Assembly: GCA_002269645.1 (NCBI GenBank)
Contig: NIVC01001321.1
Coordinates: 250,525-314,524 of the forward strand
Length of the DNA: 64,000 bases
Source: Macrostomum lignano
Lineage: Eukaryota
Reading direction: 5' to 3'
Position numbers and translations under genes: made by a program. Of this stretch, positions 41,330-64,000 are shown piece after piece (positions within the stretch are counted from its first letter, which is position 1; each line of letters opens with the position of its first letter). Under the pieces are notes generated by a model. The model saw only the letters and a list, made by a program, of their open reading frames with translations, made no database searches and was not told the origin of the DNA.

Positions 41330-41499
41330 GTGCGCTGCCGACTGATCGGCTCTCGCTTTGACCGCCTTGGGTCTTGCTGCTTGCCACTCCATTTTGATGA
41401 CTTTTTTGGAGGTTTCCGTTTAATAGCTTCAATTTGGTACATTTGAAGGTCAAGTTGAATGCATTTGCGCCTCTATCGAAAGTCGAGTTTTCACAACCA

Positions 41500-42272
41500 C
41501 CGCGATGTACACTCATTCCCTACCCGCTCAACCACCCCAATGTACACTCATTCCCTACCCACTCAACCACCCCAATGTACACTCATTCCCTACCCACTCA
41601 ACCACCCAAATGTACACTCATTCCCTACCCGCTCAACCACCCAAATGTACACTCATTCCCTACCCGCTCAACCACCCCAATGTACACTCATTCCCTACCC
41701 GCTCAACCACCCAAATGTACACTCATTCCCTACCCGCTCAACCACCCAAATGTACACTCATTCCCTACCCGCTCAACCACCCCAATGTACACTCATTCCC
41801 TACCCACTCAACCACCCAAATGTACACTCATTCCCTACCCGCTCAACCACCCAAATGTACACTCATTCCCTACCCGCTCAACCACCCAAATGTACACTCA
41901 TTCCCTACCCGCTCAACCACCCCAATGTACACTCATTCCCTACCCGCTCAACAACCAAAATTTACACTCATTCCCTACCCGCTCAACCACCAAAATTTAC
42001 ACTCATTCCCTACCCGCTCAACCACCCAAATGTACACTCATTCCCTACCCGCTCAACCACCCAAATGTACACTCATTCCCTACCCGCTCAACCACCCAAA
42101 TGTACACTCATTCCCTACCCGCTCAACCACCCCAATGTACACTCATTCCCTACCCGCTCAACAACCAAAATTTACACTCATTCCCTACCCGCTCAACCAC
42201 CCAAATGTACACTCATTCCCTACCCGCTCAACCACCCGAATGTACACTCATTCCCTACCCGCTCAACCACCC
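41500..42272. repeat. 35-bp minisatellite AATGTACACTCATTCCCTACCCGCTCAACCACCCA downstream of OXCT1
   Basis: About 22 tandem copies with no spacers. Confidence 0.95.
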
Positions 42273-42750
42273 CTAGATACAAAATATCGGAAGAAATTTT
42301 TTTTGCATGGTGCTAAGTTGAATTCCCGTTGATATTTGAGCATAAATATTTCTCTTCACGTGGGGTTATGAAATAGCAATTCACAGGGTGAGTCATTTAC
42401 ATTGAGCAACTTTCCTTCTGTAGTGGTTAATTATGGATTCTTAGCAATTAATTTGCTACCAATCTGCCAGTCCACTACAAAATATAAACGCTAACACTTC
42501 ATTGTAAAATGCGATGTATATTGAAAAGGCTGCGCCACATATTTATTATTTGGCTTATATTAATGAGAGTTATTAATATATAATTAGCTACATTTCTAAT
42601 GCGAGTGTTACTGTAATCCTGCTGTAGATTGTTATGTCTAATCATGCATTATTCAAACATCCTTGTTGTCAAAATAGACTAAAGATTTTCCAGTACTAAT
42701 AATTATTATAATTATGCATTATTATAATCGGATGATCGGTTTTCACTTTC

Positions 42751-47432: not shown

Positions 47433-50400
47433 TTAAGGCACAAAGCGCTCAGGAGCGGATCGGTTTCTGAGGCTCCTTCTCAGCTGAACGGCTTCTTCAG
47501 GCACGGGTGTCTGAATCCCTGCGACTGGCTCGTTTCCGGTTTCTGGCACGCTGTTAGTCTCATCTTCGTCCTCCATCTCGAATTCCGATGGCCGGGGGGC
47601 CAGTGGGGCAAGGTGATTCGTGCTTGCAAGGCGAAGCCCATCGTCAGCGAGGATCCACGCCGTGTTTTGACCTGCCGTCATCACGAACTTTGCCGGGTTG
47701 CCGACTGAGGAGCTGCTGGGCGCATAGATCACGCTGTCACACTGTTCGAAGTTGGTCACCACCGGGACTCTGAGTCGCCGTCCAAAAAGAATTTCGGCTG
47801 GGCAGCAGCCCCGCGAAGAGGCTGAGTTTCTGTGGTGCAGGAGGACCTTTTGCAAGAAGCGGCTAAACTCCACGTGCGTAATTTTTTCAGACCAGGCCCT
47901 TAGTGCGGACTTGACGGTCTGAACGGCCCTTTCTGCGGCTCCATTCGCCTGCGGGTAATAGGTAGGTGACTCGAGCTTCTTGGCACCATTGGCGCGGAGC
48001 CACGATGTGAGCACTTCAGTGGTGAACTCTGGGGCGTTGTCCGAAACCACCAGCTCGGGGACGCCGAACCGTGTGAATACGGTACGCAGGCACTGAATGA
48101 CTGAATCAGCTGTGCGATCGCGGCAAGGAAATGCTTCTATCCAGCCGGAAAAGGAATCCACGATGACCAGGATGTTTCCAGCGCCTTTTACGTATGCCCA
48201 GTCCATGTGTACGCGCTGGAACGGATACGTTGATGGAGGCCAGCGATCCCTGTCGTGGCCGAGTTGAGGCCGAAGCCTGCAGCAGTCTGGACAGCGTCGA
48301 ACAAACTGGGCAACGTCCTGTTGCATTCCGGGCCACCAGCAGCTGGTAGACATTAGACTGTGCGCTGCATGCATGCCCGTGTGCGTGTCGTGAATGGCAT
48401 CGAACGCGGCCTTGCGCAGTCTTGGTGGAATGAAGACTCTTCTTTGCATGTAGAGTAGTCCATTTTCTAGCGTTAGTTTGTTTGAGACTTTTTTGAACTG
48501 CGCTTCTGCCTGGCTGCAGTTTCGCCAATCGCCTTGGCGGACGCGATTGAGAATTCTGTGGGTGAGTGCGTCTAACTCCATCTCCGCTGTGATTCGTTTA
48601 GCGTCGATCACAGGTGATTCAAATTCGATTGAATTAATCGTCTCGAATGTGGCCTTGTCGTCTGATGAGCTGTCATCGAATCTGAGTCTGGATAAGGCAT
48701 CTACGTGTGGAATGCTACTGCCACGTGCATACTGAATTCGGTAATCAAACTGCATCAGGTACAAGGCCCAGCGTCCGATTCGGGCTGAGGCATCCACTGG
48801 GACGCCGGATCCGGAGCCAAAAAGTCGGATGAGCGGTTGATGGTCTGTGCGTATTGTGAATGGTCGGCCATGGCAGTAGTGCTTCAAGCGTGCGATGGCC
48901 CAAACAATAGCCAAGGCCCCCCGCTCGATGTTAGAATAATTGGATTCAGCGGAGGACAGGCTACGTGACACGTATATCACGGGATGGCCATCTTGTGTTG
49001 CCACGGCGGCGAGGGCTCCTTTGGAAGCATCAGTGGTCAGCGTCAGTTCCTTTGTCAAGCTGTAGGGCTGGACCACAGGCGCTGAAGCGATTTCCAGCTT
49101 TAGGCTCTCGAACGCTTTGGAACACTCCTCCGACCACACGAACGGAACGCTTGCTTGTCGTAGTCTATTAAGCGGTGCAGTTTTGCCTGCAAAGTTTGGG
49201 ATGAGGCGGCCGAAGAAGTTTACCAAGCCAAGAAAGTGAGCGAGCTCTGATTTATTTGCTGGCGGGCACACATGGCGAATTTTCTCCACTAGGCGATCAT
49301 CGGGCTGAATACCAGCCGCGGATATTCGGAAGCCCAAGAACGAAACCGAATCGCAATAGCTGATGCTTTTCGCTTCGTTGATAGTCACGCGCTTCTCAGA
49401 TAGACGCGTTCGCACAGCAGCGAGGCGCTTCTCCAGCGTGGGTTTGTCTGGCGCGTGAATGAGAATGTCGTCTTGGTAGATAAGCAGTCCTTTGATGTCT
49501 CCTAGAATGGATTCCATGGTGCGTTGGAAGATGAAGGAGGCGTTCTTCATCCCCATTTGCAGCCGATTGACACGATAGAGCCCGCGGGACGTGTTTATTA
49601 CCGATAGGTCTCTCGCGGCTTCATCAAGCTCGATCTGCCAGTACGCCGAACGTAGATCGACTGTGGCGAAAGTTTTGGCGTTCTTTAGCTTGGAGAACAT
49701 GGTCTCGATGTGTGGAATGGGATATGAGTCTGATTTGATCTTCGAATTGACGTGCACGCTGTAGTCCGCGCACATGCGGAGAGTTCCATCCTTCTTCTTT
49801 ACCCACACTACGGGTGAAGCGTTACTAACCGGACCCTCTGTTGGCTCGATGACACCAAGTTGGTGGAGGCGATCCAGTTCTGCGCTGATTTGGCTTTCTA
49901 GGGCGAGTGGCACAGCACGAGCGCGGCAAAATTGTGGTTTAGCACCGTCCACCAGTTCCATTCGGGCCTTAACGCCTCGGATACAGGGCAGAGGTTCGAC
50001 GGCAGTTTTTTCTGCTTGAACATCGCTGGCATGGAAGACACCGTCAGACTCGAGGAGGTCGCGGCCAAGCAACCCGTACGTCTTTTCCGAAGAGACTACA
50101 ATCAGTTCCACTGGTTGAAGGCGTCCTCGTAGCTCCACAGTTGCAGTCACTTTACCAAGCGATTTCATGACGTGCCCGTCGAAGGCCTCCAAGCGCCGAT
50201 TGGAACGCATTAGTGGTGGCTTACCCAGCAGAGCCCATTGCGCACTGGAGAGCACGGAGACTGATGCTCCCGTGTCGATCTGCATTTTGAAGGGCTTATC
50301 GTTGATGCGCACAGTCTCCGTAGATACTTCAATCGAATTGAGCGCATCGATGAGATGCAGTACGTCTGTTTTTTGTTGGGCGGAATCTGAATCCTCCTCA

Positions 50401-50754
50401 CCAGTAGTCGTGTAGTGCATGGATCGAGACTTACAAACAGTACTGAAGTGGTTTTTCTTTCCACACTTGGAGCAGCTTTTTCCGAAAGCGGGGCATCTGC
50501 CTTCGGGGTGTGACTTGCCACAGTACCGACAGGCGCTGATTGTGCGATGAGAGCTTGCATGCTGCGATGTCTCAGGCCGACCGGATTGAGCGTAATGAAG
50601 GGTGGCTTCGTAGGTGCATGGTGATTTAGATTGGCCGGTTGCCTTGTCCATCTGCCTGGCGACGAAGCCATCGACTTGCTCTAGGTTGCGCATGAAGTCC
50701 GTGATTTCTGAGACGGACATCAGTTTCAGCTGCATTGCTTCGAGTACCCCTTCT
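47433..50754 (-). CDS. Ty3/Gypsy gag-pol polyprotein, 5'-truncated (Zn knuckles, protease, RT, RNase H, integrase)
   Basis: CRYCGKSHPEGRC and CSKCGKKNHFSTVC; IDTGAS; LRMCADY, VDLRSAYWQI, YQDD; TDAS..TDH..DALSR; HHCC plus D-D-E (HMDW, SDNAPEF, AERAV). The frame stays open to the Polinton junction. The RNase H EKE motif reads ERG. Confidence 0.95.
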
Positions 50755-50952
50755 AGTAGTAGGGGAAATGTGGACTCTGCCGCAGGAATTTCCGTGGGAA
50801 AATCACGGGCCTATGTGTGTAAACATAGCGCCTATGTAAATGCATTGGTGGACTCTGCCGCAGGGAAAGCCATGGAAATTCCATGGGGCCTTAGTGAGAG
50901 AACATAGGCCTATGTTTTTCTATTGCTGTATGTCTGCTGCAGTGGTTTAGTC

Positions 50953-50960
50953 TATATAAG
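50953..50960 (+). promoter_or_regulatory. Canonical TATA box upstream of the first Polinton ORF
   Basis: TATATAAG, 86 nt upstream of ATG 51039. Confidence 0.5.
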
Positions 50961-51038
50961 GACCAAAAAATCTCTTTGATTCATGAAAAATCGAATTTTT
51001 TTTTCAACGAGATTTTTTTTTCTGTTAGAGTTTAAGTC

Positions 51039-51803
51039 ATGGACATCGGCGAAGGATATAAACTCCAAATACAGGAGTATGAAGGAGTTATGTTCATTGC
51101 TATCAGAAAATTTTACCGACATGGCAGCACTGCGAGTTTGAAACCTGGAGTCCCCGGCTTCAATTTGAACATCCGTCAGTGGGAGAAGCTCAAGGAGTTG
51201 AAGCGATCACTTGTCAAGGCGGCCTTGGACAAACAGCCAAAGGTTGTCAAACTCGGCTTCGATAAGTTCATCGAAGTGAAAAACGGCATTATCTGGTTAA
51301 AGCGATTGCCGGAGGACTGCTGCGACGAGTTTCTTAAGCGGAACACCGTGCCGCTGACACCGCCGCTGTGGCGAAAGCTGTGGCAGTACGCGGATTGGAT
51401 CGACGAGCAGCTATCGGCTCCACGTGAGATTTCCGATGCATACGAGCTGGAGTCGGGATCTTCCTCCGACAGCATCGAAAATGAAGACGATGCTGGCGAA
51501 AACGCGGAAGAGACCAAGCCGGTAGTGAAGGCGGAGGACGATGCTGCTGCTGCTGCTGGCGAGGCTGGCATGCCATCCAATCTGCAAATCGACACAGCGT
51601 TTGCCACTTCAACGCCTCTGCAACTGACCAAGCCAGCAGCTGGAGCGATTCCTCGGCAGGACACTGATCTGCAAGAGGACCCAGTCTGGTACCAGTTCCG
51701 AGCTCAAGCAGCCGCCGCTGAGAACGCCAGGAAACGCAAGCAGCCGCCATTCGCTCTGCGCAGATTGGATGCCATGAAGCTGCCCAGGCCGTGCTTCGAC
51801 TGA
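51039..51803 (+). CDS. PC4/Sub1-like ssDNA-binding protein with acidic low-complexity tail
   Basis: IGEGYKLQIQEYEGVMFIAIRKFY..LKPGVPGFNLNIRQWEKLKE aligns by eye to the PC4 core (IG..RYVSV..FKG...IDIREYW...KPG.KGISL...QW..LKE). A weaker second repeat follows. Confidence 0.8.
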   Translation: MDIGEGYKLQIQEYEGVMFIAIRKFYRHGSTASLKPGVPGFNLNIRQWEKLKELKRSLVKAALDKQPKVVKLGFDKFIEVKNGIIWLKRLPEDCCDEFLKRNTVPLTPPLWRKLWQYADWIDEQLSAPREISDAYELESGSSSDSIENEDDAGENAEETKPVVKAEDDAAAAAGEAGMPSNLQIDTAFATSTPLQLTKPAAGAIPRQDTDLQEDPVWYQFRAQAAAAENARKRKQPPFALRRLDAMKLPRPCFD

Positions 51804-51970
51804 TTGCAGACCCTCTGACATTGAGACAAACTCTGTGCTACGAGCTATTTATCCAGACCTGCTTTCCATCTCTTTGTTTGAAAAAATATATATGCTTGCT
51901 TTCACATGCGCTATGCATTTTCAATGTCTTAAGAAAACCTAAAAATAAAAATGTTTCTTTGTTTCCGAAA

Positions 51971-53038
51971 ATGGAAAAAATTTATTTCAACCCAAATCAG
52001 CCTGCGAGCTATTGCAGTTCTTCAAAACTGCAACCTGAACTGCGAAAAAGAGGCGAGCATATTGGAGTCAAGAGCATTGAGCAGTGGCTAAGTCAGCAGC
52101 CAGTACACACTCTGCATAAGCCAGCTAGAGTACGATTTCCAAGGGCGCCAATAATAGTGAGAGCCATTGATGATCAGTGGGAGATGGATCTGGTGGAAAT
52201 GATTCCATTTGCAAAGTATAATCGCGGGCATAAATACATTCTCACCTGCATTGATGTTTTGTCTAAATTTGCAATGGCCAGAGCACTGAAGTCTAAGAGC
52301 GCGGCAGAAGTGAAATCTGCGTTTGAGAGCATGCTGAAGAGCTCAAAGCGGCAGCCGCGCACTGTCCGCACAGATCAGGGAAAGGAGTTTGTCAACGCAA
52401 TTTTTCGCCAGTTCTGCATAGACCGGGGGATTCTGGCGTTTCCAACTAGCAGTGTGCACAAAGCAGCCATAATTGAAAGATGGAATCGAACTTTAAAAAG
52501 CAAGATGTGGCGTTACTTTACTCACAACAGCACTCTACAATGGCTTGATGTGCTGCCTAAACTGGTCAAGTCCTATAACAATACTTTCCACAGAAGCATC
52601 AAGACTACACCAATGAATGTCAGCAAAGCAAACGAGACTGAAGTGTGGATGAACCTTTATGATGGGAAAGCGATTGAGACAGTTGAGAAACTGAGAAAAC
52701 CGAAGTTCTGTGAAAACCAATCAGTGCGGATTTCCAATGCACCCAGACTCTTCAGGAAGGGATACAAGGCGAACTGGAGCGAAGAGGTGTACACCATAGT
52801 GTCTAGGGCACCAAAGCATTATCCCTACATGTACAGGATTCGAGACATGAAGGGGGAAGACATAAGAGGCCTCTTCCACGAGCATGAGCTGCAAGCTGTT
52901 CCGGACTCGCAGCGGCTGTATGTAATCGAGAAGGTTCTGAAGACTGAGAAGCGGAAGGGTAAGATCCGATATCTCGTCAAGTGGGCCGGCTACAAGTCCA
53001 CTGACTGGGTGGATGAGAAGGACTTAAGAAAAGTGTAA
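51971..53038 (+). CDS. Retroviral-type (rve) integrase with C-terminal chromodomain
   Basis: WEMDLVEM / RTDQGKEF / IIERWNRTLK DDE triad; chromodomain YVIEKVLK..RYLVKWAGY...WV. The true start is inferred at MEKIYFNP. Confidence 0.92.
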   Translation: MEKIYFNPNQPASYCSSSKLQPELRKRGEHIGVKSIEQWLSQQPVHTLHKPARVRFPRAPIIVRAIDDQWEMDLVEMIPFAKYNRGHKYILTCIDVLSKFAMARALKSKSAAEVKSAFESMLKSSKRQPRTVRTDQGKEFVNAIFRQFCIDRGILAFPTSSVHKAAIIERWNRTLKSKMWRYFTHNSTLQWLDVLPKLVKSYNNTFHRSIKTTPMNVSKANETEVWMNLYDGKAIETVEKLRKPKFCENQSVRISNAPRLFRKGYKANWSEEVYTIVSRAPKHYPYMYRIRDMKGEDIRGLFHEHELQAVPDSQRLYVIEKVLKTEKRKGKIRYLVKWAGYKSTDWVDEKDLRKV

Positions 53039-53068
53039 GATACCGACATTGTGCAGCCATTCCCAACT

Positions 53069-53878
53069 ATGAGAAGCATCATCATTTGTAGCGAAAATGC
53101 TGAAGGTACTCCTAGTGACTTTCATTTTCACCTGCCTTCATCTATTTACTTGGATCGAAATGTGGACTATGAGGCAGGTCTGGCTGAAATCCATCTGCCT
53201 GCTGCATGGTTCAATGTTGACGAGCCTTACTGCTTCACTGTCTCAGATGGAAGAGAGCATGAGGCCCTGGTTCTTCAACCCGGACGCTTTGCTAGAGTGG
53301 AGGAACTGGTGGAACGCCTGAATGAGCTGCTGGCCAACTCTGAGTCACTGTTCTTCGATGCAATGAGCGAAAGGGAGTCTGAAATGGAAGCTGATGAGTC
53401 CGGTTTAATGGGGCGGAGCAGCGCTAGAGATATTGGCATAAAGTTTGAAATCCAAGAGTTGAGAACAGTAGTGCTCAACAACACGGCTCGAGCAGAATTG
53501 TTCCTTCCATCAAGTAAAATTCTGCAGTGGCTGGGATTCGGAAACCAGCCTGTGAAGATCCCACCCGGACGGCAAGTGTCACTCTGCTGCATCGGTTGTC
53601 CGCCCACCAACCTGATCAACTTGCACTGCAGCATTGTGGAGCGAACAAACTGTAACTGGAACTCCGTGCTGCGAACTGTGAGCATGTCATCCGATGTCGA
53701 ATGGGGCAGCTACATGAGCAAAGTGTTTAAGAAAGCAATTTTCTTCCCGATTCAGAAAGCTAATTTTCTACATGGCATTAGATTTCAACTGCGTGACATC
53801 TTTGGCTACTCACTGACTGCTCGGAGCAGCAGCCCTGTTCTGCTCACAGTTCATATTCGGGAAAGGCTAATACAATGA
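53069..53878 (+). CDS. Minor capsid (penton-like, PX) protein
   Basis: TPSDFHFHLPSSIYL...YEAGLAEIHLP N-terminal signature and C-terminal IRFQLRDIFG..LLTVHIR. Confidence 0.8.
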   Translation: MRSIIICSENAEGTPSDFHFHLPSSIYLDRNVDYEAGLAEIHLPAAWFNVDEPYCFTVSDGREHEALVLQPGRFARVEELVERLNELLANSESLFFDAMSERESEMEADESGLMGRSSARDIGIKFEIQELRTVVLNNTARAELFLPSSKILQWLGFGNQPVKIPPGRQVSLCCIGCPPTNLINLHCSIVERTNCNWNSVLRTVSMSSDVEWGSYMSKVFKKAIFFPIQKANFLHGIRFQLRDIFGYSLTARSSSPVLLTVHIRERLIQ

Positions 53879-54285
53879 ACTACCAACAGCTGATTCGTCA
53901 GTATTCAGGGACTCTGGCAGGAAGCCAAAAGCCGGCGCTCTATGGCTGTGGGAGTTTTCCAGGAATCATGACTTACCAGCCTCCTCCAGAAGCTTCCACA
54001 AAGTCAATATCGCTATCAAAGCCAGCCCATACCACCGCCAGCGGTAGCAGCAGCAACAGCAGAAGCAATAGAAACAGACCAAAGCAGCGACTAGTCAAAC
54101 AGGGCAGTAAGAAGCAGACAAAAAAGAAGAAAAAGAGTAAGACGGAGAAATCACCGAAAAGAAGCCAGTCAGGGCGAAATAAACCTAAGAAAGGGAGGTC
54201 TAAAACTCAAAGCAAGAAAACAGGCAAAGGAAAGCAAAAAGTGAGCAAAAAGACTGTGAAACGTGTTCTGGACTCGCTCTCATAG
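53875..54285 (+). CDS. Small Lys/Arg/Ser-rich putative core (DNA-condensing) protein
   Basis: 136 aa with a highly basic C-terminal half, located between the two capsid genes; LYGCG motif; ATGA overlap with the penton stop. Confidence 0.6.
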   Translation: MNYQQLIRQYSGTLAGSQKPALYGCGSFPGIMTYQPPPEASTKSISLSKPAHTTASGSSSNSRSNRNRPKQRLVKQGSKKQTKKKKKSKTEKSPKRSQSGRNKPKKGRSKTQSKKTGKGKQKVSKKTVKRVLDSLS

Positions 54286-54287
54286 CA

Positions 54288-55570
54288 ATGGCTTACGGAT
54301 TCAACCCGAGACTCGATTTGTTCAAGTCCCCCATGCTGCAGACTGCCATTGAAAAATCCACATATGTTGATATTCACCCCGTGAACTCTATTGCTACTAA
54401 CTCACCTATTGAATTCGACTGTCATCCATCGGCTGATGAGTACACTGATCTGCTGAGCTCATTCCTGTATATTCGCTGTCGCCTAGTCCGGCTTGGCGGG
54501 GCTTTGATGAGGGAGGAGGTTCGAAATGCCGATGGAGTTGTCACTGAGCGCAGAGACAGTGGGGTGCACCCAGAAAACTTTGTCCTGTCTACGGCATTCT
54601 CAGATGTAATCGTGAGCATCAACCAGCGCATTGTCTCAGGCGGAGACCAGCTCTACCCCTACCATGCCTACCTAAAAGCTCTCATGGCTCATCCGATGCT
54701 CAGCAGTTAAAGTTCTACCCCGCCGGATTCCTGGAACCCGAAACTGCTGCTGAGGGGCATGCCGAGAGACACAGGGAGTCCCGCTGGGTGGAGTATGCGG
54801 GACCGCTGCTCAGCGACATCTTCCAGTGTCCTGTTCTGCTGCTGAACAATTTACACCTGCACATCAAGCTGATGCCCAGTGATGCTGCATTCGCCATTCG
54901 AACCCCAGATGATAACAACACAGCCTACCGAATGGAAATCTCCCACTGCATTCTGAACCTGCGCCGAGTCAAAGTGGCGCCTCACATCAGCCTGGCGCAT
55001 GAACAGGGACTGACCAATCAGAACGCACTCTACCCCATCGAGCGAACCGAAATGCAAAACTTTATTCTACCCCAGGGAATTCAGTCAAAAAACATTGAAG
55101 GATTCACCCATGGCAAACTGCCGAAGTTCGTTATGCTGGTCTTCGTGAACCACCGAGCCTTCAATGGCCATCACCATTCCAGCCCTTTCGAGTTCCAGAG
55201 CTTCAACCTCAGCCAGCTAGCACTAAAGAAAGGTGGTGAAGCCATGTGCCACGCTGCATTTGCACCTGAGAATAATTCATTCGTGAGAGAGTACTTGCAC
55301 TACCTGAAAAGCTGTCAGTCAGCCAGCCCTACCAACTCGGTTCCGTGGGTCCCCTACCAGTTGTTCTCCAACGGCAACACAGCTTTCGCATTCGATCTCA
55401 CGCCTGAGGGAGCGGCCCTGTGGTACGGACAGAAGGAGGGCAATTTGCGGCTGGAGATTCGCTTCCGACAGGCCCTGGAGGAGCCTGTATCTCTGATTGT
55501 TATGTGCCTGTATGACTCACTGATTGAGGTCACCAAGCACAGGGAGATTCTGCTAGATTTTCCATCCTAG
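54288..55570 (+). pseudogene. Major capsid (double jelly-roll, PY/hexon-like) protein with one frameshift near 54688
   Basis: LDLFKSPMLQTAIEKSTYVDIHP..SPIEF and YPYHAYL continue in another frame as SSDAQQL..AGF..GPLLSDIF..LLLNNLHLHIKL..GKLPKFVMLVFV..FDLTP..GNLRLEIRF. One missing base restores a ~427-aa protein. Confidence 0.88.
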
Positions 55571-55593
55571 GAGTACGCTGGCGCAACGCTAAT

Positions 55594-56112
55594 ATGGATG
55601 CTTTTCAACTGCTTAAACTGGCTAAAAGCTTTTTGCCACAAAATAACTGTTTAATTATTGTCTTGAATTCAATAAATAAAACATCTTATGCTTTAAACTT
55701 TATTCAGCGAGCAACTCTCAAAAGAAATTTATCTCGATGTAAGTTTATTTTCTTTCTGCTTCAGTACAGCTCATCCTTCGGTCACTGGGTGGTTTGTTAT
55801 GCTGATAAGGAGAATTCCATAGAACTCTTTAACTCTCTGGGCTGGGACTCCAGCACTTTAGAGATCATTCACAGAGCACTGAAATCCTTTTGGTATTCTC
55901 CATTCTACTTACGTAGCAATGTGAATCGAATTCAGAGCTGTGACTCTGCTAAATGCGGTTTGTTCTGTCTCTTGTTTGCCTATCAAAAGTTTCGTTTCAA
56001 GCGCTCGTTTGAGTGGGTTCTGCGGCACCTCCATGCAAATCAGCAGAGCCACTTGAATGAGAGAATGCTGCAAAGGTTTGAGAGTTGCTTAAGAAAAAAG
56101 AAATTTAATTAG
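55594..56112 (+). CDS. Adenain-like cysteine protease
   Basis: GHWV (His), FNSLG (Asn at the usual Asp position), IQS (Gln) and KCGLFC (Cys). Confidence 0.88.
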   Translation: MDAFQLLKLAKSFLPQNNCLIIVLNSINKTSYALNFIQRATLKRNLSRCKFIFFLLQYSSSFGHWVVCYADKENSIELFNSLGWDSSTLEIIHRALKSFWYSPFYLRSNVNRIQSCDSAKCGLFCLLFAYQKFRFKRSFEWVLRHLHANQQSHLNERMLQRFESCLRKKKFN

Positions 56113-56145
56113 ACTTTCAAAATTAGGGATTTAGCTCAACAGGCG

Positions 56146-56799
56146 ATGGAAACACGTGAGCGGATAAACTGTTATGATGTGCGCCTGCGACAGGGAAGCT
56201 GCATGATTGTCAGCGGGCCTACAAATGCAGGAAAGACAACCTTCGTGAAACATCTGATACAATACAAGGATGTCCTGTTTGATGTGAAGCCTGGGAGAGT
56301 TCTGTGGTACTACGGGATTTCACAAGCAGCACACTCTGAGCTCAGCAGTCTCGGCGTGCACCTGCAGCAGGGATTTCCCAGCAGTATCGAGACCGCACTG
56401 AGACCCAATGACCTGGTTGTATTTGATGACCTGATTGAAGAAACTTCCAATTCTGCTGCAATGCGAAATGTTTTCACTGGAATTGCCCATCATTTGCCCT
56501 GCTTTCTGGTTATGCTCACCCAAAATGTATTTTTTAAAGGGAAGGAGTTGCGAACAATGAGTCTGAATGCGATGTACTTTGTGATCATGAAGAACCCCAG
56601 AGACCAGCTGCAGATTGCAGCGCTGGGCAGGCAGTGCTTTGCTGAGAAGCCCGGATTTCTGCTGTCAGTGTTCAAGCACGTGACATCGCACGGCAGGGGA
56701 GCCTACCTGCTCCTGGATTTTCACCCTTCCACCCCTGATGAGCTGCGGGTCCGGGCTCGAATCCTGCCCAATCAGCGACCCCACCTGGTTTACACTTAA
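56146..56799 (+). CDS. A32/FtsK-HerA-type DNA packaging ATPase
   Basis: Walker A GPTNAGKT, Walker B LVVFDD, LTQN and KNPRD motifs. Confidence 0.92.
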   Translation: METRERINCYDVRLRQGSCMIVSGPTNAGKTTFVKHLIQYKDVLFDVKPGRVLWYYGISQAAHSELSSLGVHLQQGFPSSIETALRPNDLVVFDDLIEETSNSAAMRNVFTGIAHHLPCFLVMLTQNVFFKGKELRTMSLNAMYFVIMKNPRDQLQIAALGRQCFAEKPGFLLSVFKHVTSHGRGAYLLLDFHPSTPDELRVRARILPNQRPHLVYT

Positions 56800-56846
56800 G
56801 AATAACAGCCGAGATTTTGCCATTTGTTCTATATTCTGCAACACTA

Positions 56847-57164
56847 ATGATAATGGAAACCTTTGACTCACATGAAAGTTTGTTTGATGTTCTCGCGTCA
56901 CCGAAATATTCCATCAGCTTTAAACGTCTGTTGATCAGAGCGGGTCCAAAAGCCGTACGTGAATTTCTCATTGAGGCCTGCTACAACCTATTGCAAAACA
57001 CTCTGTCGTTCTCACTCACTCAAAAGGCAGCGCTGGTGAAGCAAAAGCAAATAATCCGCAAAATTTCTACACATAGAAGAACTGCGGATCTGCTAAATAC
57101 GGGTTTTATCAAAATTCTCTACATTCTAATAAAGCTAGTGAAGAAAAAGAAGCAAAATGAATAA
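56847..57164 (+). CDS. Small Polinton-type hypothetical protein
   Basis: EACYNLLQNTLSFSLTQKAALVKQKQIIRKI resembles the short helical ORF usually found after the Polinton ATPase (recollection only). Confidence 0.55.
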   Translation: MIMETFDSHESLFDVLASPKYSISFKRLLIRAGPKAVREFLIEACYNLLQNTLSFSLTQKAALVKQKQIIRKISTHRRTADLLNTGFIKILYILIKLVKKKKQNE

Positions 57165-57878
57165 GTTCTCAGAAATGGTTCTGATCCCCAAGTCAGAGTA
57201 CGACATGCTCACACAGAATTTGAAGCCAGTCGAGTCTGAAATGGACACTGCTGTGAGATATGCGCAGAGGAAATGCAATGATATTTTGCTTGCCGAGGAT
57301 TGCCCAGACGATGTGAAAGCTGCCATGTACCATGATGCGATGAAGAGTTTGCTGGCCAAGCGCAAGCGGACTGGAAAGGATGGTGCGGTACCTGCGAGTG
57401 ATGCAAAGATGCTGAAAACAGATATTGCACCAAGCAGCTGGGGGGAAAAGATCACCCAATCCGTGCCGCAGAAGTTTAAAGCGAGAGCCCGCAGTCTATG
57501 GGCCATCCTATCTGGCAATCCTCTCTGATTCGGGTGTCCGAAAATGGCGAGGCGCAAATTTCTGGGAAGACAATACCCTCCTCAAACATCCTGGATTTGT
57601 TTCACAGTGCGGTGAGGGATTCGAAATGTGCCAGCGAGCCGGTAGGCTGGAGTGAGTTTGTCTCATTGCTTCAAGACAAAAAGCTTAACATCCCAGCTTC
57701 GGCTATAGGAAAGTCAGTAAGGCAGCTAATTTCTAAACCGGCTGTTTCTCCAGAGGCCACCCCTGCACATCATACAGTTAAGGGATTCGGGAGTGGGAGA
57801 GCCTGGCTACACCTGAGCAGGAAAAAAAACTATTTAAGAAGGGGAACTGAGTCGGCTTCCCGACATCTTGCGTCTTGA
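57157..57878 (+). pseudogene. PZ-like Polinton protein split by a 2-nt (CT) insertion near 57524
   Basis: MVLIPKSEY..SVPQKFKARARSLW in one frame, then NGEAQISGKTIPSSNILDL..PVGWSEF..IPASAIG in the next. Removing CT from CCTCTCTG joins them. Confidence 0.7.
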
Positions 57879-57890
57879 AACCATCCGATC

Positions 57891-58736
57891 ATGAACTATA
57901 TTGACTTCCAAGGCTTCCCACGCGAGAGATCGAGCAGAGATTTCGTTGTGAAGGAGCTGGCCATTGCCCAAGTCCGGGCTGGCAGTTACCATATCACTCA
58001 TCACGTGTACGCCTCTCCGTTCTCATGGGACAGAATCTCACCTGAGATGCAAGTACATTACAGAAAGCTCTCAAAGAATTTGCATCATTTCAAGTGGACA
58101 GATGGATCCCGACCGTACATGCATTTGGCTAATGACATTCTAAACATTGCTTACGGTCCCACCTGGACAAGCGGGGTGAAAAAGTCCATCTTTCTGACTG
58201 AGCTGCTTGGCAGACAGGTGTACAACCTAGAGGATCTGGGATCACCTTTGATTCAAGCATCTGATACTGGTTGTGCAGTGAAAAATGTATTACTGTACTA
58301 CAACTGGCTGAAACCGAAGTTCTGTATCAACTTAAGAAGCGAGGTGTGCCCGCACCACTCAAAAGCTCGCAAAGACAGCACCACTGACAGAAAGGACTCT
58401 CTAAATGAGTACACCTGCGACAGCCCTGCGAGTGACCAATCTGGTCGGCGGCGTGGATCTGAGACTTGCTGGAGACAGGGGTGCCCAGTTGCCTCTGCGG
58501 GAACTGGCTCTCAGCATGGCTCATGTCATCTATCGCCCCGTCTGGCCCCGAGTGCTTATCAAGAGGATGCGGAGTCCCAGAGTGACTCTATTGCTCTATC
58601 CGACTGGACAACTGAGTATCTGTGGCGCCCGGAGCTACTCGGCCTCAGTCAGGGCCGCTCGTCGCTTCGTGGCTATGCTGCATCGCAGAGTGCCTGCTCA
58701 ACTGCTGCCTCATCAAACTGTGCATGTGCGGATTAA
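57891..58736 (+). CDS. DnaQ/DEDD-like exonuclease-family Polinton protein (conserved part ~aa 1-141) with a tail overlapping the TBP gene
   Basis: IDFQGF..FVVKELA..HHFKWTDG..YNLEDLGSP..CAVKNV..YNWL pattern recognised from Polinton accessory proteins. Confidence 0.55.
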   Translation: MNYIDFQGFPRERSSRDFVVKELAIAQVRAGSYHITHHVYASPFSWDRISPEMQVHYRKLSKNLHHFKWTDGSRPYMHLANDILNIAYGPTWTSGVKKSIFLTELLGRQVYNLEDLGSPLIQASDTGCAVKNVLLYYNWLKPKFCINLRSEVCPHHSKARKDSTTDRKDSLNEYTCDSPASDQSGRRRGSETCWRQGCPVASAGTGSQHGSCHLSPRLAPSAYQEDAESQSDSIALSDWTTEYLWRPELLGLSQGRSSLRGYAASQSACSTAASSNCACAD

Positions 58737-58968
58737 AACTATTACTGCGCATGGGAAAATTGACTTGTGCAGAGCACTTCCCCTCGCTAATCTTGTGAAC
58801 ACTTTACCAAGTGCTCAATATGAGCCAGAATCATTTTCTGCTTTGATCTGCAAACTAAGCTTCTGCAAATGCCTGCTTTTTCACAATGGCTCATTCGTTC
58901 TCAGTGGTGCAAAAACAATGAGCATGCTAATTTCCGACTTTTCCTTGCTTGTCCGTTTTCTGTGCTAA
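58405..58968 (+). CDS. TATA-binding protein (TBP)-like protein, core domain only, 187 aa
   Basis: Two TBP repeats: VTNLVG..L.ELA..IYRP.WPRVLIKRMRSPRVTLLLYPTGQLSICGARS...RAARRF and IKTIT..LPLANL..AQYEPESFSALICKL...LLFHNGSFVLSGAK. Compare canonical QNIV..[36 protein letters not shown]..AARKY and YEPELFPGLIYRM..LLIFVSGKVVLTGAK. Confidence 0.9.
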   Translation: MSTPATALRVTNLVGGVDLRLAGDRGAQLPLRELALSMAHVIYRPVWPRVLIKRMRSPRVTLLLYPTGQLSICGARSYSASVRAARRFVAMLHRRVPAQLLPHQTVHVRIKTITAHGKIDLCRALPLANLVNTLPSAQYEPESFSALICKLSFCKCLLFHNGSFVLSGAKTMSMLISDFSLLVRFLC

Positions 58969-59683
58969 TAATAACCATATGTTTCAACAATTAAATAAAA
59001 AGACGACAGCTGAACAAAAATATAATAATCTTGCATGCATATACCACGTATTAAGATGCGTGCATTTTAATCAATATACCTGAAAATCAGACTTCGATCG
59101 ACTTTTTCTTTATTTTCATAACTGAAATCGCAATATTAGTTTGAGTATAGAAAATTTAATCAGACCACAACCAACTCAAGAAAAAAAGCACACCCATCAC
59201 TCAGATTATGCACTGCTAAGACAAATAAAAACGAACAAGAACTAGCAGAAATGAAAAAGGAAGCAATATTTTTCAGATAATCATTGGATAATGGTTACAA
59301 AAAATATGAGTAGCAAAGCTAGCAAAGATAAAAAAGGACAGTAACTCAGTTCATTCAATTGTGCAAAAATTCAAGGATAATAAAAAAGGGAAAGCCAGAC
59401 CAATATGCCGCAAATTATTCCAACATGGCTTTCACAAGTTCGTATTGAAATAAATCTGGAACAACTCAACTCGAAAATGTTACGCTCAGTTAGTTGCTTA
59501 GAGACTACAAATATGTAACTAACTGAATTGGCTCTATTCGTTCCAGCATTGTCATTATCATCATCATCCATCATTATCATCATCATCATCATTCAGATTA
59601 ATTAAACCACTGAAACAATTCATGGAGTACATAAGTAAAAGTCAATAAATTTCAACGCCAAGGTTACACAGATGTGCAAAGCA

Positions 59684-62600
59684 TCACTCTAAGCAGTCCG
59701 CTGTCCTTTTCGGACTACCCCTGATTAACAGCTGAAAGTGGCCGAACGGAAGACTTGAATTCGAGCCAGTCCACGCTCGCTTGTCCTCCCAGATACTGAG
59801 AGCGAGCTTACGTTGCTCAATGGTGAAAACGCGATGTTTCTCACTTCCAATTCGACGAACAGTGAGCGACAGCTTTGAAGCCCCCTTGAAAATCTTGACG
59901 TAGTCGTCGTGGGAGACTTCATTCTTCAGCACGCTTCGTTGGATGCCTTTTGCTTTTGCTTTGCATGCCGCCGAGCTTTCAGCGAGGAAAGAATAGAGCT
60001 TGGGCCTTAGCAGCACCCACTCAATCTGTTGCAGTCCACCAGCTTCATCTTTAATGCAGCCTAGCTTGGCCTTTAGCCGATTCGAGAAGAGAGGATGATT
60101 AGTGAAAAAATTGGAGGTGTCCAAGAGGCCTTCGGCATGCAGGATTGGCAGCACTTCTCTCTGCAAACTAAGGTTCTCTAAGCTCAAAAACAACGAGTCT
60201 GTATCGCCACCGCAAACTCGAACTCTTGCTCCATCACGGAATTCTAGCATGGGTTTTATTTTGTCATAGTAAAGTCGATACATGATGATCTTGGAGCGAT
60301 CTAGAACACACTGCCCCATGAAAATTGGCGATCAAGAGTTACTTCGCGCTTTTGAAGCTCAAAGATGCTGAGTGACGGCGTAATGATTGTGAATGATGCG
60401 ACATTTGGTTGAGAAGAAACAGTCTTGGCTTTTTTCTTGTCACTGCACACTCTGATGTCCCGCCGCTTGCGCACGTTCTCCATTGTTTTGCCAAACAGGG
60501 AGTTATTTTTCAGTTTATAGAAATCCTTCTCGAAATCATTTTTCGCCATAGAGCGCTTCTCGCTATTCATCTTAATGTAGTCCGCGAAGACAGGTTCTTG
60601 CCTGAATTCGATCATCCTGTGGAGCCCATGCAACTTCATTCCGTGCGATAGATAGAATCGGAGAGCAGACGAGTGCAGTACATAGGAAAACTTGTTGTGG
60701 CATGTGAGCATTAATTTTTGTACTCCACGGTAGCGCGCAACGGTAGGATTCTCAGTCGTGTTCGCGTCGGGCTGCTGCTGCTGATGATGCTGAGAATGAT
60801 CATTGTCATGTTGAAGCAGTACCCATAATTCTCGCATGTACTGCGGAAATTCTTCAAAATTCGGACACCTTTTCTCTGGGGCGAATGGAAGATCCTCCGT
60901 TGCCGTGTGGATTTCGGCTGGGTAGAGCAAATCCGCTTCGACAAGGTAGCCGATTGGAGCGTCATCATCCAGGGAAAGAAAGCGGCACTCGGACCATGAG
61001 CAGAGCTCCTCTTGACTGAGCCAGCGAAAGCCACCAACAGGTAGGGGCATTGTGAGCGCATGACCGTAAAGATTATTAGCATCAACAGCCAGTAAACTCC
61101 TACCTGCTGGTTCATTATCATCATCGCTACTTTCGCTCTGGACATGATGTACATTGACAAAAGACATTCCACCCCGAATTCCTTTTTCAAACATTTTATA
61201 CATCTCGAGGTCAGTTAGCAGTTCGATCTTGACTTGAGAAGACTTTAGTGCAGAAGCGAATGATAGGCCTGGAGTTGACACAAAATGCACCGGATCTAGC
61301 TTGTCTTCCTGCAAACTCAGCCTTCGAAACCCTCAAAGATATCTGCTAGTTGCCTGATGTCCAGCTCCAAGTAGCAGAGCATGTAATCGCGCAATGTTGT
61401 AGATTCGAATTCAGTCCAGGCCTTCTGCGCATGCCGATACTCCGCCTCGGTACAGTGGCTGTTGGTGAGTCGGTTAAAAAAGCTTTCTACTTTTGGTAGT
61501 TGGCGATCATCAAGCACATTCAAATTCGAGAGATAATCATAAGGGAAAACTCCCTTACTAAACAGTACATCGCTTGAAAGATTTGGATACTTTGATCGCA
61601 TCGTCATGTCAAGCGTTGAGTCTGTGAAGATTGCAGGGGCTTCTGTCGACCGTCAGGGCAAATTGCATAAATAGCAGTTGTGGCAGAAAGCACTGCATTG
61701 CATAAATAGCACTGTGTGTCATCACTGTTTCTGTCAGCAATCTGATGACTAAACTCGGTATTCCAACCATAAACTTCACGAGCAAGACGTTCGAGTGAGG
61801 CCAAAAACTGTTTCACGACAGAATTCGGATTGGGTCCGCTGCAGAGGAAAACATCCTCACTCGGCCTCAGAATTTTGCTGCTCATACCCTCTCTTGGAAT
61901 AACAATGTAGCCAGCAGCTACAGGTACATGCTCAGTTAACTTGGTGACAGTAACTTCTCTTTCAGGCTCACTGGTTCACGTGGGGTGTTCAGAGCTTCAA
62001 AATCTGCGTAGACAACAAATGGGGGACTGATTGTCTTTTCCCAAGCCATGAACTGCATTGTGTTGCTACTTGCATCAGGCATGCGCTCCATGATGGCTGG
62101 TTTCAGTTGAGGATTGCAGCTGTCTCGATGCTGCTCCAACTCTTCCTGGATCGAAACGGAGAAATGCACTTCTCACACCATTTGCGATTCCTCAGACCTT
62201 TTTTGCTGTTCAGGAGCCGGTCCAGGTTCGAAACTGCACACCAGTGTCCAGTCCCACAATTCTCATCACCACCATCATCATCATCAGCATCATCGGAGCT
62301 GGAGTTGCGAAGCAAGAGTAGAGGAATAACCTTGCGAGAGGCACAAATCCCAGGAAGAGGCTGGCGAATGACATAGGCCTCATCATCTTCCCAGCTAAAA
62401 ACTGTGAAACAGATTTCGGAATTCTTTTCCTCTATAACGTCTAAATCGGAAATTGCGACTGGTAGTGCGTGCCGCTCAGATCGATTTCATCCAACCATCT
62501 GCTGTAAGTTGTTAGTCGATGGCAAGACTTCATCACACCAGGATCTCTGTGTGCAGGTAAGCGAGACAGGCAAACAGAAAGCAATTGTTTCCATCGCTCG

Positions 62601-63111
62601 GTGGGTTGATTATGGCCTTCTTAACGGCCAGCTGATTGGGCAAAGAAAAATTCGCGCATCGTCCACGATAGTAGCGAATGCGATCAGTGAGGGCAGAGCA
62701 CAGATCAAAATAGTTGATTTGCTCAACTATCCAACCGCTCCCATTTGAATTGTAGGCATCAATCTTGCGTTCCAGCTCAGAAAACTGCTGCAACCACCAC
62801 AATTCAAAATCTCTTAGATCAGAGAGAAGCTCAAGACCGCATGCGATCCACTTATCTTCTGCATTGATTACCGCAGCTTCCTTGATTCTCACCATTCTGA
62901 TGTTGAACTTGAGCTGCGCTCGAATAGAATTATTCTCGGATGAATCGAATCTCATCTCAACAGCCTGTAGCACTGCAAACTTCGTTGATGATAAAAAATG
63001 AAATGGCTCGAGACCTCTTGATGCTGGAGTGAAGCGTCTGACCTGCAGCGTGTCATCATGCGCACTAGCGTGAATAGCCGAGCTGAATTGAATGCCTGCA
63101 TGAATTAGCAT
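59684..63111 (-). pseudogene. Protein-primed family B DNA polymerase (pPolB), multiply frameshifted
   Basis: Segments carry NGSGW..KKAIIN..NNCFLFA, GHWCAV, VYADFEAL, KGVFPYDY, YLELDIRQLADIFE, GIRGG, DANNLYG, YKLKNNSLFGK, GDTDS, LRPKLYS and KAKGI across at least seven ORF fragments. Confidence 0.93.
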
Positions 63112-63184: not shown

Positions 63185-63375
63185 CGGGAATCGGTTAATC
63201 AGGAATCAGTGAATCGGGAATCGGCGAATCGGGAATCGGTGAATCAGGAATCGGCGAATCGGGAATCGGTGAATCGGAATCGAATCGGGAATCGGTGAAT
63301 CGAGAATCGGAATCGGGAATCGGTGAATCGAGAATCGGTAATCGGGAATCGGTGAATCGAGAATCGGTGAATCGG
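63185..63375. repeat. GAATCGG(G/T)-type short tandem repeat upstream of pPolB
   Basis: Iterated GAATC(G/A)G units; they give the PIPDS tail of ORF 63195-63614. Confidence 0.9.
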
Positions 63376-64000
63376 ATTTTATGACTACTTTTGCTGTATT
63401 TACAGAGGGAAGAGTTTACTTTACTGGCTTTACTAATCACATTGATTGACTCACTAGTTGGTTCGATTTCGATAGCAAAATTGGTAGACTCAAGCGGCCG
63501 ATCACTTGCTGATGATGATGAAGTGTCTCTTGAAGAAGGCATCTCGGTTTGGTTGATGACACTGCTTAGAGCATTTTCGATGAGAATTAGATGAGGAAAT
63601 TTGCTGAAATACATATTTGTGAAATTATTTTTTCTTGCAAAAGTAAATTCAAATCCCTAATTTGTGGATATACGCTCGTATTAAGTGTACATATTTTCGA
63701 AAGTTGTACTTCGGGTCTTGTCGTTACGTGCCAAATTTCGGGGTCTAATAAAGGGTCGAATAAAAAGGTCCTATAAAACGAATTCTAAAAATAATTCAAA
63801 ATAACTCAAAGCTGCAAACTTTTTCAAAATTCAGCGCTTCATTGCGCTTTAAAATTTATATTATAAAAATTCAATGATACGCTACATTATTAGAAGCACA
63901 AGTTAAAGAAGGAGATTACAAACCCAACCAGAATCAAACCCATTCTGCATTCACACCCAAGCACAGCCTGATCAACGCGCACTGCCTGCATAAATATGAA

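Follow-up and report, generated by a model that had tools for sequence, protein, structure and literature searches.

In beta- and gammaherpesviruses late transcription depends on a viral protein mimicking TBP (the TATA-binding protein), for example ORF24 of KSHV (Kaposi's sarcoma-associated herpesvirus), acting on TATTWAA promoters (PMC12529657), and large DNA viruses encode diverged TBP-like factors, including the poxvirus VITF-3, for staged transcription (PMC7221094; PMC12917281). Starrett et al. (PMC8502044, likewise in preprint form) name TBP-like genes from related small viruses in the legend to a figure, the accessible portions of the paper containing no promoter analysis. Here we describe a Polinton/Maverick element that encodes its own TBP, located in 64,000 nucleotides (nt) of Macrostomum lignano DNA (assembly GCA_002269645.1, contig NIVC01001321.1, positions 250,525 to 314,524; the whole stretch is hereafter the window). 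Most of its downstream genes are preceded by a conserved, family-specific element, (C/T)(T/A/C)TAAGAA, referred to below as the box. No RNA polymerase gene is present in these elements, and for animal Polintons without one the questions at stake are how the capsid genes are timed and whether the element is autonomous or needs a helper. The novelty of the locus lies in the contrast, within one genome, of two box dialects matched by changes in the TBP.

A first-pass annotation of the window had reported TTAAGAA upstream of six Polinton start codons and once more before the core-protein gene. All seven sites were found again on the plus strand between 51804 and 58968, at exactly 51929, 53024, 53727, 56089, 56796, 57834 and 58332, with no others in that block and with the distances to the next ATG as claimed (Table 1; counted with the preceding base included). 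Six of the seven overlap coding sequence. The enrichment persisted under codon-preserving shuffling: in 5000 synonymous-codon shuffles that kept proteins and codon usage, the mean number of copies was 0.88 (maximum 5) against the seven observed, and six genes have TTAAGAA 35–80 nt upstream against a mean of 0.07 (maximum 2; 0/5000 shuffles), the distance window having been set post hoc. The antisense strand of the element contains no copy. Among all heptamers CTTAAGA ranked second and TTAAGAA third in the window block, and in the sister elements from families A and B they took first or second rank. Over the whole window TTAAGAA is not enriched (18 against 13.4 expected; 13/100 shuffles). Seven of these 18 copies belong to a minus-strand host tandem repeat (18917–19636 and 23324–23791) unrelated to the Polinton. 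The box is real and non-random.

Eight of the ten downstream genes are boxed. The major capsid protein (MCP), protease and PZ genes had been listed as lacking a close copy; this holds for the protease and PZ, the unboxed pair, but the MCP gene is preceded by the variant CCTAAGAA, which is homologous to CTTAAGAA in family B. A canonical TATA box before the first, PC4-like gene was likewise borne out in every sister copy scored (Table 1), so that the element has two promoter-like classes, TATA at PC4 and the box before downstream genes, as had been proposed.

A TBP search of the genome returned at least 152 matches, and the 39 loci sampled across the ranking comprised 38 copies of families A and B and one of family C. 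Per-gene counts refer to A/B copies with an anchorable gene start, a Y(A/C/T)TAAGAA 30–170 nt upstream being scored as a box. All eight box sites are retained in 88–100% of anchored A/B copies, upholding the conservation in sister elements on which the earlier claim had been staked, and synonymous sites of A and B are merely 47–69% identical. Where the box is formed by a Leu-Arg pair, TTA-AGA is kept in family B in three of three cases, against one of nine for other TTA codons, TTA being the rarest Leu codon (12/176). At the ATPase stop codon the non-coding GAA of the box is retained although its flanks diverge, and the exonuclease site of family B reads TATAAGAA. In five unalignable intergenic regions the integrase box lies 39–62 nt from the ATG and 125–323 nt from the upstream stop, indicating that it tracks the ATG and not the stop.

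At least eight families of Polintons (A–H) are present in the genome, each with a diverged TBP-like gene; family C was sampled at 16 further loci and families D–H at two copies each. Family C takes an intermediate place: at homologous sites it has CATAAGAA, TATAAGAA or CATAAGAG, with TATAAAAG before the TBP gene. The occurrence of TATAAGAA (family B exonuclease, family C) and TATAAAAG (family C TBP) at homologous sites would tie the box to TATA; counted as changes from TATAWAWR, TATAAGAA differs by one, TTTAAGAA by two and CTTAAGAA by three, and one family C homologous site is canonical. Gene order is changed in family C and the per-gene box assignment is retained. In this family (L070–L085) a separate TATATAA precedes the PC4-like gene, which is found at the far end and on the opposite strand; the polymerase gene is upstream and co-directional.

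Families D–H, whose ATPase is 34–39% identical to that of family C, use a different box. TATAAGC was the top heptamer de novo in every one of them (one copy each), and TATAAG(C/T), in boxes of the TATAAG(C/T)A type written TATAAGCA, occurs 5–10 times after the polymerase gene and not at all in the block from the terminal inverted repeat to the polymerase that contains the TBP-like gene (6/6 copies counted). It precedes the orthologues of penton, mu-like, core and capsid genes. In one family D copy (L092, 8937–9108) four of the ten copies belong to a local tandem duplication before a basic open reading frame (ORF). TTAAGAA occurs at most once in D–H and TATAAG(C/T) never in A, B or C. In a curated set of related sequences, position 7 is A in 27/27 A–C boxes and C or T in 30/30 D–H boxes, and position 1 is T in 29/30 D–H boxes and C in 18/27 A–C boxes (15/20 and 3/7); TAAG is the sole core common to all eight families. 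These mutually exclusive boxes occur in the same host and have switched together at 5–8 promoters, and so many promoters switching at once would imply a dedicated reader that changed alongside them.

The first-pass annotation had proposed to test whether motif and TBP co-occur across families. All eight families bear a TBP-like gene, and both clades have a box, in D–H TATAAG(C/T) instead of TTAAGAA. The early block of D–H encodes a far more diverged TBP-like ORF, matching PF00352 in E, G and H, weakly in F, and recognized by alignment in D. An initial tblastn search had suggested that D–H lack TBP, which was ruled out when a profile search and Pfam revealed these ORFs, and there is no TBP-less Polinton control among the eight families examined. 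The TBP gene is boxed in A/B and occupies an unboxed early position in C and D–H. TBP-like frames without an ATG open at TTTCAG or TTTTAG in D, E, G and H (L102 at about 1342, L095, L090, L108), the openings in E, G and H being preceded by a pyrimidine tract, and an intron in the TBP-like gene of D, E, G and H is likely. Families D–H (L090–L109) encode a deoxynucleoside kinase and a dUTPase, with a phospholipase A2-like gene in F, G and H; an adenovirus mu-like core peptide is present in D, G and H, and TBP and kinase share one frame in one E copy.

The first-pass annotation had described the element TBP as altered, and this proved correct. The model of the window protein shows the full two-repeat saddle fold (predicted local distance difference test, pLDDT, 84; TM-score 0.72–0.79 to TBPs). 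In presumed yeast residue numbering it retains Asn69, Val71, Leu114, Phe190, Leu205, Phe207, Val213 and the stirrup glutamates, and is altered at Phe99, Phe116, Val122, Thr124, Asn159, Val161, Pro191, Val203 and Thr215, the Phe99 region being loosely aligned. Phe99 is lost, and the substitutions include Phe116 to Tyr, Asn159 to Thr, Thr124 to Cys, Thr215 to Ser and Pro191 to Ser, so that the protein departs from the canonical cellular set of four intercalating Phe, two Asn, two Thr and Pro191. The host TBP is canonical at 19/19 positions checked and is common to both Polinton clades, and a host TRF2-like protein lacks intercalating phenylalanines. TBP relatives were found in other assemblies (P0002–P0004, P0009 and P0010), and no related locus was found in the viral contigs or metagenomes searched; a single match (L130) was rejected as a chance match with an in-frame stop.

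Pro191 disfavours a base other than T at position 1, and residues 203 and 205 face position 2, according to the accessible parts of PMC1636458. Pro191 is kept in D–H and lost in A–C, which fits position 1 of the boxes, T in the former and often C in the latter. Residue 114 is Leu in A–C and Gln in D–H, and as the symmetry mate of Leu205 it likely faces position 7. Glu186 and Glu188 are retained in A–C, and since TBP glutamates contact TFIIB (PMC7221094, accessible portions) their retention would fit use of host TFIIB. No PF00382 match lay at the element loci (15 matches on 7 contigs), although a very diverged TFIIB could escape such a search.

The likely position of transcription starts was approached through 57 curated box–start pairs, from which two family C sites at -12 and -11 were left out and in which the homologous later ATG was used for two core genes. 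The shortest box-to-ATG distance is 35 nt. Out-of-frame ATGs occur at background frequency up to +36 (17/1095 positions against 65/3681 in the control) and are depleted beyond it (11/1643); the Fisher p values of 0.03 and 0.002 for this contrast are optimistic, as the pairs are related and the boundary was picked afterwards. Both the ATG pattern and the 35-nt floor fit a start near +30 rather than within TAAG. None of the data sets listed as holding the sequence is recorded as RNA. Four runs presumed to be RNA gave contigs spanning 27–30 of 30 bins of 50700–59700; these show no joints and no start peaks, and among the 24 loose ends listed none is leader-like. Contigs being unable to reveal starts, this says nothing either way.

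Taking these observations together, we infer that the box is probably a non-canonical form of TATA, with the TBP of the element itself as its reader and host RNA polymerase II (Pol II) as the enzyme. Host TBP would fire the canonical TATA boxes by the terminal repeats, those of the PC4-like gene and the polymerase. The first element TBP would come, in A/B, from read-through of the co-directional block or from leaky host recognition of its own box and, in C and D–H, from the unboxed early position. Element TBP would then bind the boxes, and its acidic stirrup, which has been retained, would bring in host TFIIB and Pol II, with transcripts beginning about 30 nt downstream. The result would be staggered mRNAs that serve the integrase, capsid, core and packaging genes as well as TBP (a positive feedback), the protease being carried on the MCP transcript and PZ on that of the small ORF. 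More tentatively, and with slightly more doubt than belief, we suggest that the Polinton clades sharing this host use its Pol II for transcription systems orthogonal to each other, their TBP faces having co-evolved with their own dialect (YTTAAGAA or TATAAGCA), each firing only its own late genes and invisible to host TBP and to the other clade. The two-stage programme of host and element TBP envisaged by the first-pass annotation is partly supported, by the box, the promoter classes, the altered TBP and the clade switch.

Several observations weigh against a box read by the element TBP. The TBP gene of A/B is itself boxed (38/38), so start-up needs the read-through or leaky recognition mentioned above. 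With the first intercalating Phe gone and the second replaced by Tyr, DNA binding by the element TBP is not assured. No initiator-like peak was seen at +25 to +35 in the curated pairs. In family C enrichment taken alone is weak (TAAGAR 8 against 4.0; 11/400 shuffles), one CTTAAGAA lies merely 12 nt before the penton ATG (with a second site at -95) and a TATA-like TATAAAAA lies 11 nt before PZ; in D–H the ATPase gene is boxed in just one of five. The D–H TBPs form one clade (100/100) and those of A–C another (91/97), so that the covariation of residues and bases amounts to one or two evolutionary changes and provides no independent contrasts. The contacts of Leu114 with position 7 and of Val122 with position 6 are our assumption, in part taken from TBP symmetry. 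Moreover, a G at position 6 is tolerated by wild-type TBP (PMC1636458), which weakens a change of Val122 to Ser or Thr as the cause of that G, and wild-type TBP has been crystallized on the single variants G(-26) and T(-30) (1qn5, 1qna). Given this tolerance of single variants, the host could read the D–H TATAAGCA and the TATAAGAA copies.

The latter point leads to the strongest rival, which we nevertheless regard as unlikely: host TBP/TFIID, perhaps assisted by an activator from the element, would recognize the box as a weak form of TATA, and the element TBP would be otherwise employed, for instance in sequestering host factors. Under this view a boxed TBP gene has no difficulty in starting up, and wild-type TBP does accept G at position 6 or T at position 2 as single changes. 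TTAAGA also serves as a TATA substitute in the adenovirus E2 early promoter, a point that a literature check did not confirm. What speaks for a different reader is that CTTAAGAA departs from TATAWAWR at three places, among them position 1 with its C, which Pro191 disfavours, and that one host TBP does not explain positions 3–7 being invariant within each clade yet position 7 being A in one and C/T in the other; the host TRF2-like protein, without intercalating phenylalanines, also counts against host reading.

Binding of the box by some other sequence-specific protein, a host activator or repressor or an element protein, with no involvement of TBP, appears improbable to us. Some boxes do lie 100–240 nt from the ATG, and several element ORFs have no known function, as this would allow, but the strict orientation without antisense copies, the 35-nt floor and the exchange with canonical TATA at homologous sites suit a core promoter. 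The baculovirus late initiator (A/G/T)TAAG, within whose TAAG the viral polymerase starts, had been raised in the first-pass annotation as another interpretation. Its extension, a TAAG core serving as initiator for the RNA polymerase of a baculovirus- or nudivirus-type helper that makes the late transcripts, is in our judgement very improbable, and the initiator interpretation itself is disfavoured: none of the nine elements tested shows enrichment of bare (A/T)TAAG, bases on both sides of it are invariant, ATG distances start at 35 nt with out-of-frame ATGs at background right after the box, the homologous site may be TATAAAAG, without TAAG, and the splice-acceptor-like openings of the D–H TBP frames point to nuclear Pol II. 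In its favour, TAAG is the sole core across all eight families, and virophages and some Polinton-like viruses share promoter motifs of their helpers (10.1101/2022.07.28.501842, accessible parts). A LEF-8 search was blank, as was its control.

Still less credit is due to the box as an RNA-processing signal, a trans-splice acceptor at AG or a 3'-end signal cutting a long transcript into single-gene mRNAs. Flatworms employ spliced-leader trans-splicing, the genes are co-directional and tightly packed, and the box is on the sense strand only; however, it has no upstream pyrimidine tract and has invariant bases past the AG, unlike the acceptor-like sites of the D–H TBP, out-of-frame ATGs lie right behind the AG, the box is not linked to upstream stops, and the AG is missing at that position of the TATAAAAG homologue. 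A coding artefact, in which the heptamer arises at gene ends from Leu-Arg-Lys, Phe-Lys-Lys and stop-codon contexts, is already largely refuted and has a negligible chance, single sites possibly excepted, because the overlap of 6/7 sites with coding sequence, the penton site as Phe-Lys-Lys within a conserved stretch and the survival of the integrase-end site in family C just 12 nt from the next ATG are outweighed by 0/5000 codon shuffles, three reading contexts plus non-coding copies, and TTA as the rarest Leu codon.

The element is a Polinton/Maverick by its protein-primed DNA polymerase B, integrase, adenain-type protease, double jelly-roll MCP, putative packaging ATPase and terminal inverted repeats (Table 1). 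Its right end falls past the contig end, and the repeat was identified through the inverted right end of a sister copy. A model of the MCP of a sister copy (L036; pLDDT 57) resembled the MCPs of PBCV-1 (Vp54), Sputnik and mavirus in a structure search (E 1.8e-13). Upstream of the first ORF of a family-B polymerase lie TATATAAG, at 115 nt, and TATAAATA, at 66 nt, and polyadenylation-like signals comparable to that of the window copy lie 3' of TBP in L036, L045, L065 and L071. In families A, B and C (window 57891–58736; L045, L054, L071), the TBPs of which are 35% identical, the exonuclease-like frame stays open over the first TBP repeat for 106–128 codons, and the alternative frame over the overlap is full of stops; conservation of the overlap is possible. 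Starting 20 nt from the left end, a 1100-amino-acid (aa) ORF on the minus strand (47433–50735), labelled by motifs as Gypsy-like protease, reverse transcriptase and integrase, likely marks a nested insertion. Long ORFs made of tandem repeats lie at 41459–42332 (host satellite-like) and 63195–63614 (a short repeat array upstream of the polymerase).

Table 1. Features of the Polinton copy in window coordinates; copy counts refer to anchored sister copies, and a gene is called boxed when a box precedes it.
Feature	Position	Strand	Remarks
Left terminal inverted repeat	50755..50888		Starts AGTAGTAG; minimum length; 97% inverted match to right end of sister copy L086
Canonical TATA box TATATAAG	50953..50960	+	86 nt upstream of PC4-like gene; TATAWAW in 21/21 sister copies
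PC4-like gene (coactivator or single-stranded DNA-binding protein)	51039..51803	+	PF02229, E 3.6e-6; boxed in 0/21 copies
Box CTTAAGAA	51928..51935	+	Intergenic, 43 nt before integrase; 21/24 copies; flanks unalignable between subfamilies
Integrase with chromodomain	51971..53038	+	PF00665, E 2.5e-16; PF00385
Box CTTAAGAA	53023..53030	+	Inside integrase 3' end, 46 nt before penton-like gene; 25/25 copies
Putative penton	53069..53878	+	Label from first-pass annotation and gene order; Pfam blank
Box TTTAAGAA	53726..53733	+	149 nt before core-protein gene; 27/27 copies; TATAAGAA at family C homologous site
Putative core protein	53875..54285	+	Basic, Lys/Arg-rich; assigned from composition alone
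Box variant CCTAAGAA	54184..54191	+	104 nt before MCP; 30/30 copies (11 CCT-, 18 CTT-, 1 TTT-)
MCP, double jelly-roll	54288..55570	+	Two ORFs in window copy, single 427-aa ORF in sisters
Adenain-type protease	55594..56112	+	PF00770, E 9.4e-5; boxed in 0/35 copies
Box CTTAAGAA	56088..56095	+	58 nt before packaging ATPase; 30/34 copies
P-loop ATPase, putative packaging ATPase	56146..56799	+	Walker A, weak AAA matches only; type from P-loop and context
Box CTTAAGAA	56795..56802	+	Spans ATPase stop codon, 52 nt before 105-aa ORF; 29/31 copies
105-aa ORF, function unassigned	56847..57164	+	Pfam blank
PZ-like gene (label from first-pass annotation)	57157..57878	+	Split in window copy, single 240-aa ORF in L032; boxed in 0/35 copies
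Box TTTAAGAA	57833..57840	+	58 nt before exonuclease-like gene; 32/32 copies (13 TTT-, 18 TAT-, 1 CAT-)
Exonuclease-like ORF (putative label)	57891..58736	+	Pfam blank; frame continues across first half of TBP
Box CTTAAGAA	58331..58338	+	74 nt before TBP gene; 38/38 copies; TATAAAAG at family C homologous site
Element TBP, two-repeat, altered DNA-binding face	58405..58968	+	PF00352, E 2.4e-21
ATTAAA/AATAAA	58990..58999	+	Directly 3' of TBP; likely polyadenylation signal of plus-strand block
Protein-primed DNA polymerase B	59684..63111	-	PF03175, E 8.9e-9; in several pieces in window copy

In the literature searched, in which subscription papers were thinly covered, we found no description of a Polinton TBP together with a promoter box. 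The terms sought do not occur in PMC4457894, PMC11296320 or 10.64898/2026.10.13.758929, nor the term Polinton in four text supplements of PMC7221094. Should the proposed reading by the element TBP hold, a self-encoded promoter reader would give a helper-free early-to-late switch parallel to that of herpesviruses, although the lineage is a different one and a single small protein would suffice. The presence of both dialects and both TBP types in one laboratory animal would show natural re-tuning of TBP specificity, and orthogonal clades would mean that elements of 15 kb provide naturally occurring TBP/box pairs of altered specificity.

Compared with described systems, the window Polinton shares terminal inverted repeats, polymerase, integrase, ATPase, adenain and double jelly-roll MCP with its adintovirus/Polinton kin (Starrett et al., 2021), in the accessible text of which (PMC8502044) the word promoter is absent and neither a box nor a reader model is given. 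As in the Polinton-like virus Gezel/PgVV-14T, a motif is repeated upstream of genes; there, as far as the accessible text goes, the motif belongs to the helper, whose machinery reads it, whereas the window Polinton supplies a candidate reader itself (10.1101/2022.07.28.501842). With the baculovirus late initiator the box shares the TAAG core and the late structural genes, but it is 8 bp long, has TATA geometry and differs in that bare TAAG is unenriched. TBPs of large viruses usually come with a viral TFIIB and RNA polymerase in the sources as far as accessible, unlike the situation in these Polintons, with no TFIIB match and no polymerase gene. The proposed mode of action resembles the herpesvirus late system, as far as its accessible description extends: a DNA virus of the nucleus that brings no RNA polymerase, host-type canonical early promoters, late genes behind a TATA variant and an encoded TBP fold with a more polar DNA-binding face. 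Features of the herpesvirus pre-initiation complex are nevertheless missing here, the box being of TAAG type, the TBP only 187 aa long and no ORF24-type partners occurring among the annotated ORFs. Herpesvirus ORF24 is large, binds Pol II directly and requires five further viral factors (PMC12529657, accessible portions), whereas the Polinton TBP is a stand-alone protein of an unrelated lineage that keeps the TFIIB-binding glutamates and is paired with a box having G at position 6, and, unlike in herpesviruses, two box dialects exist within one host.

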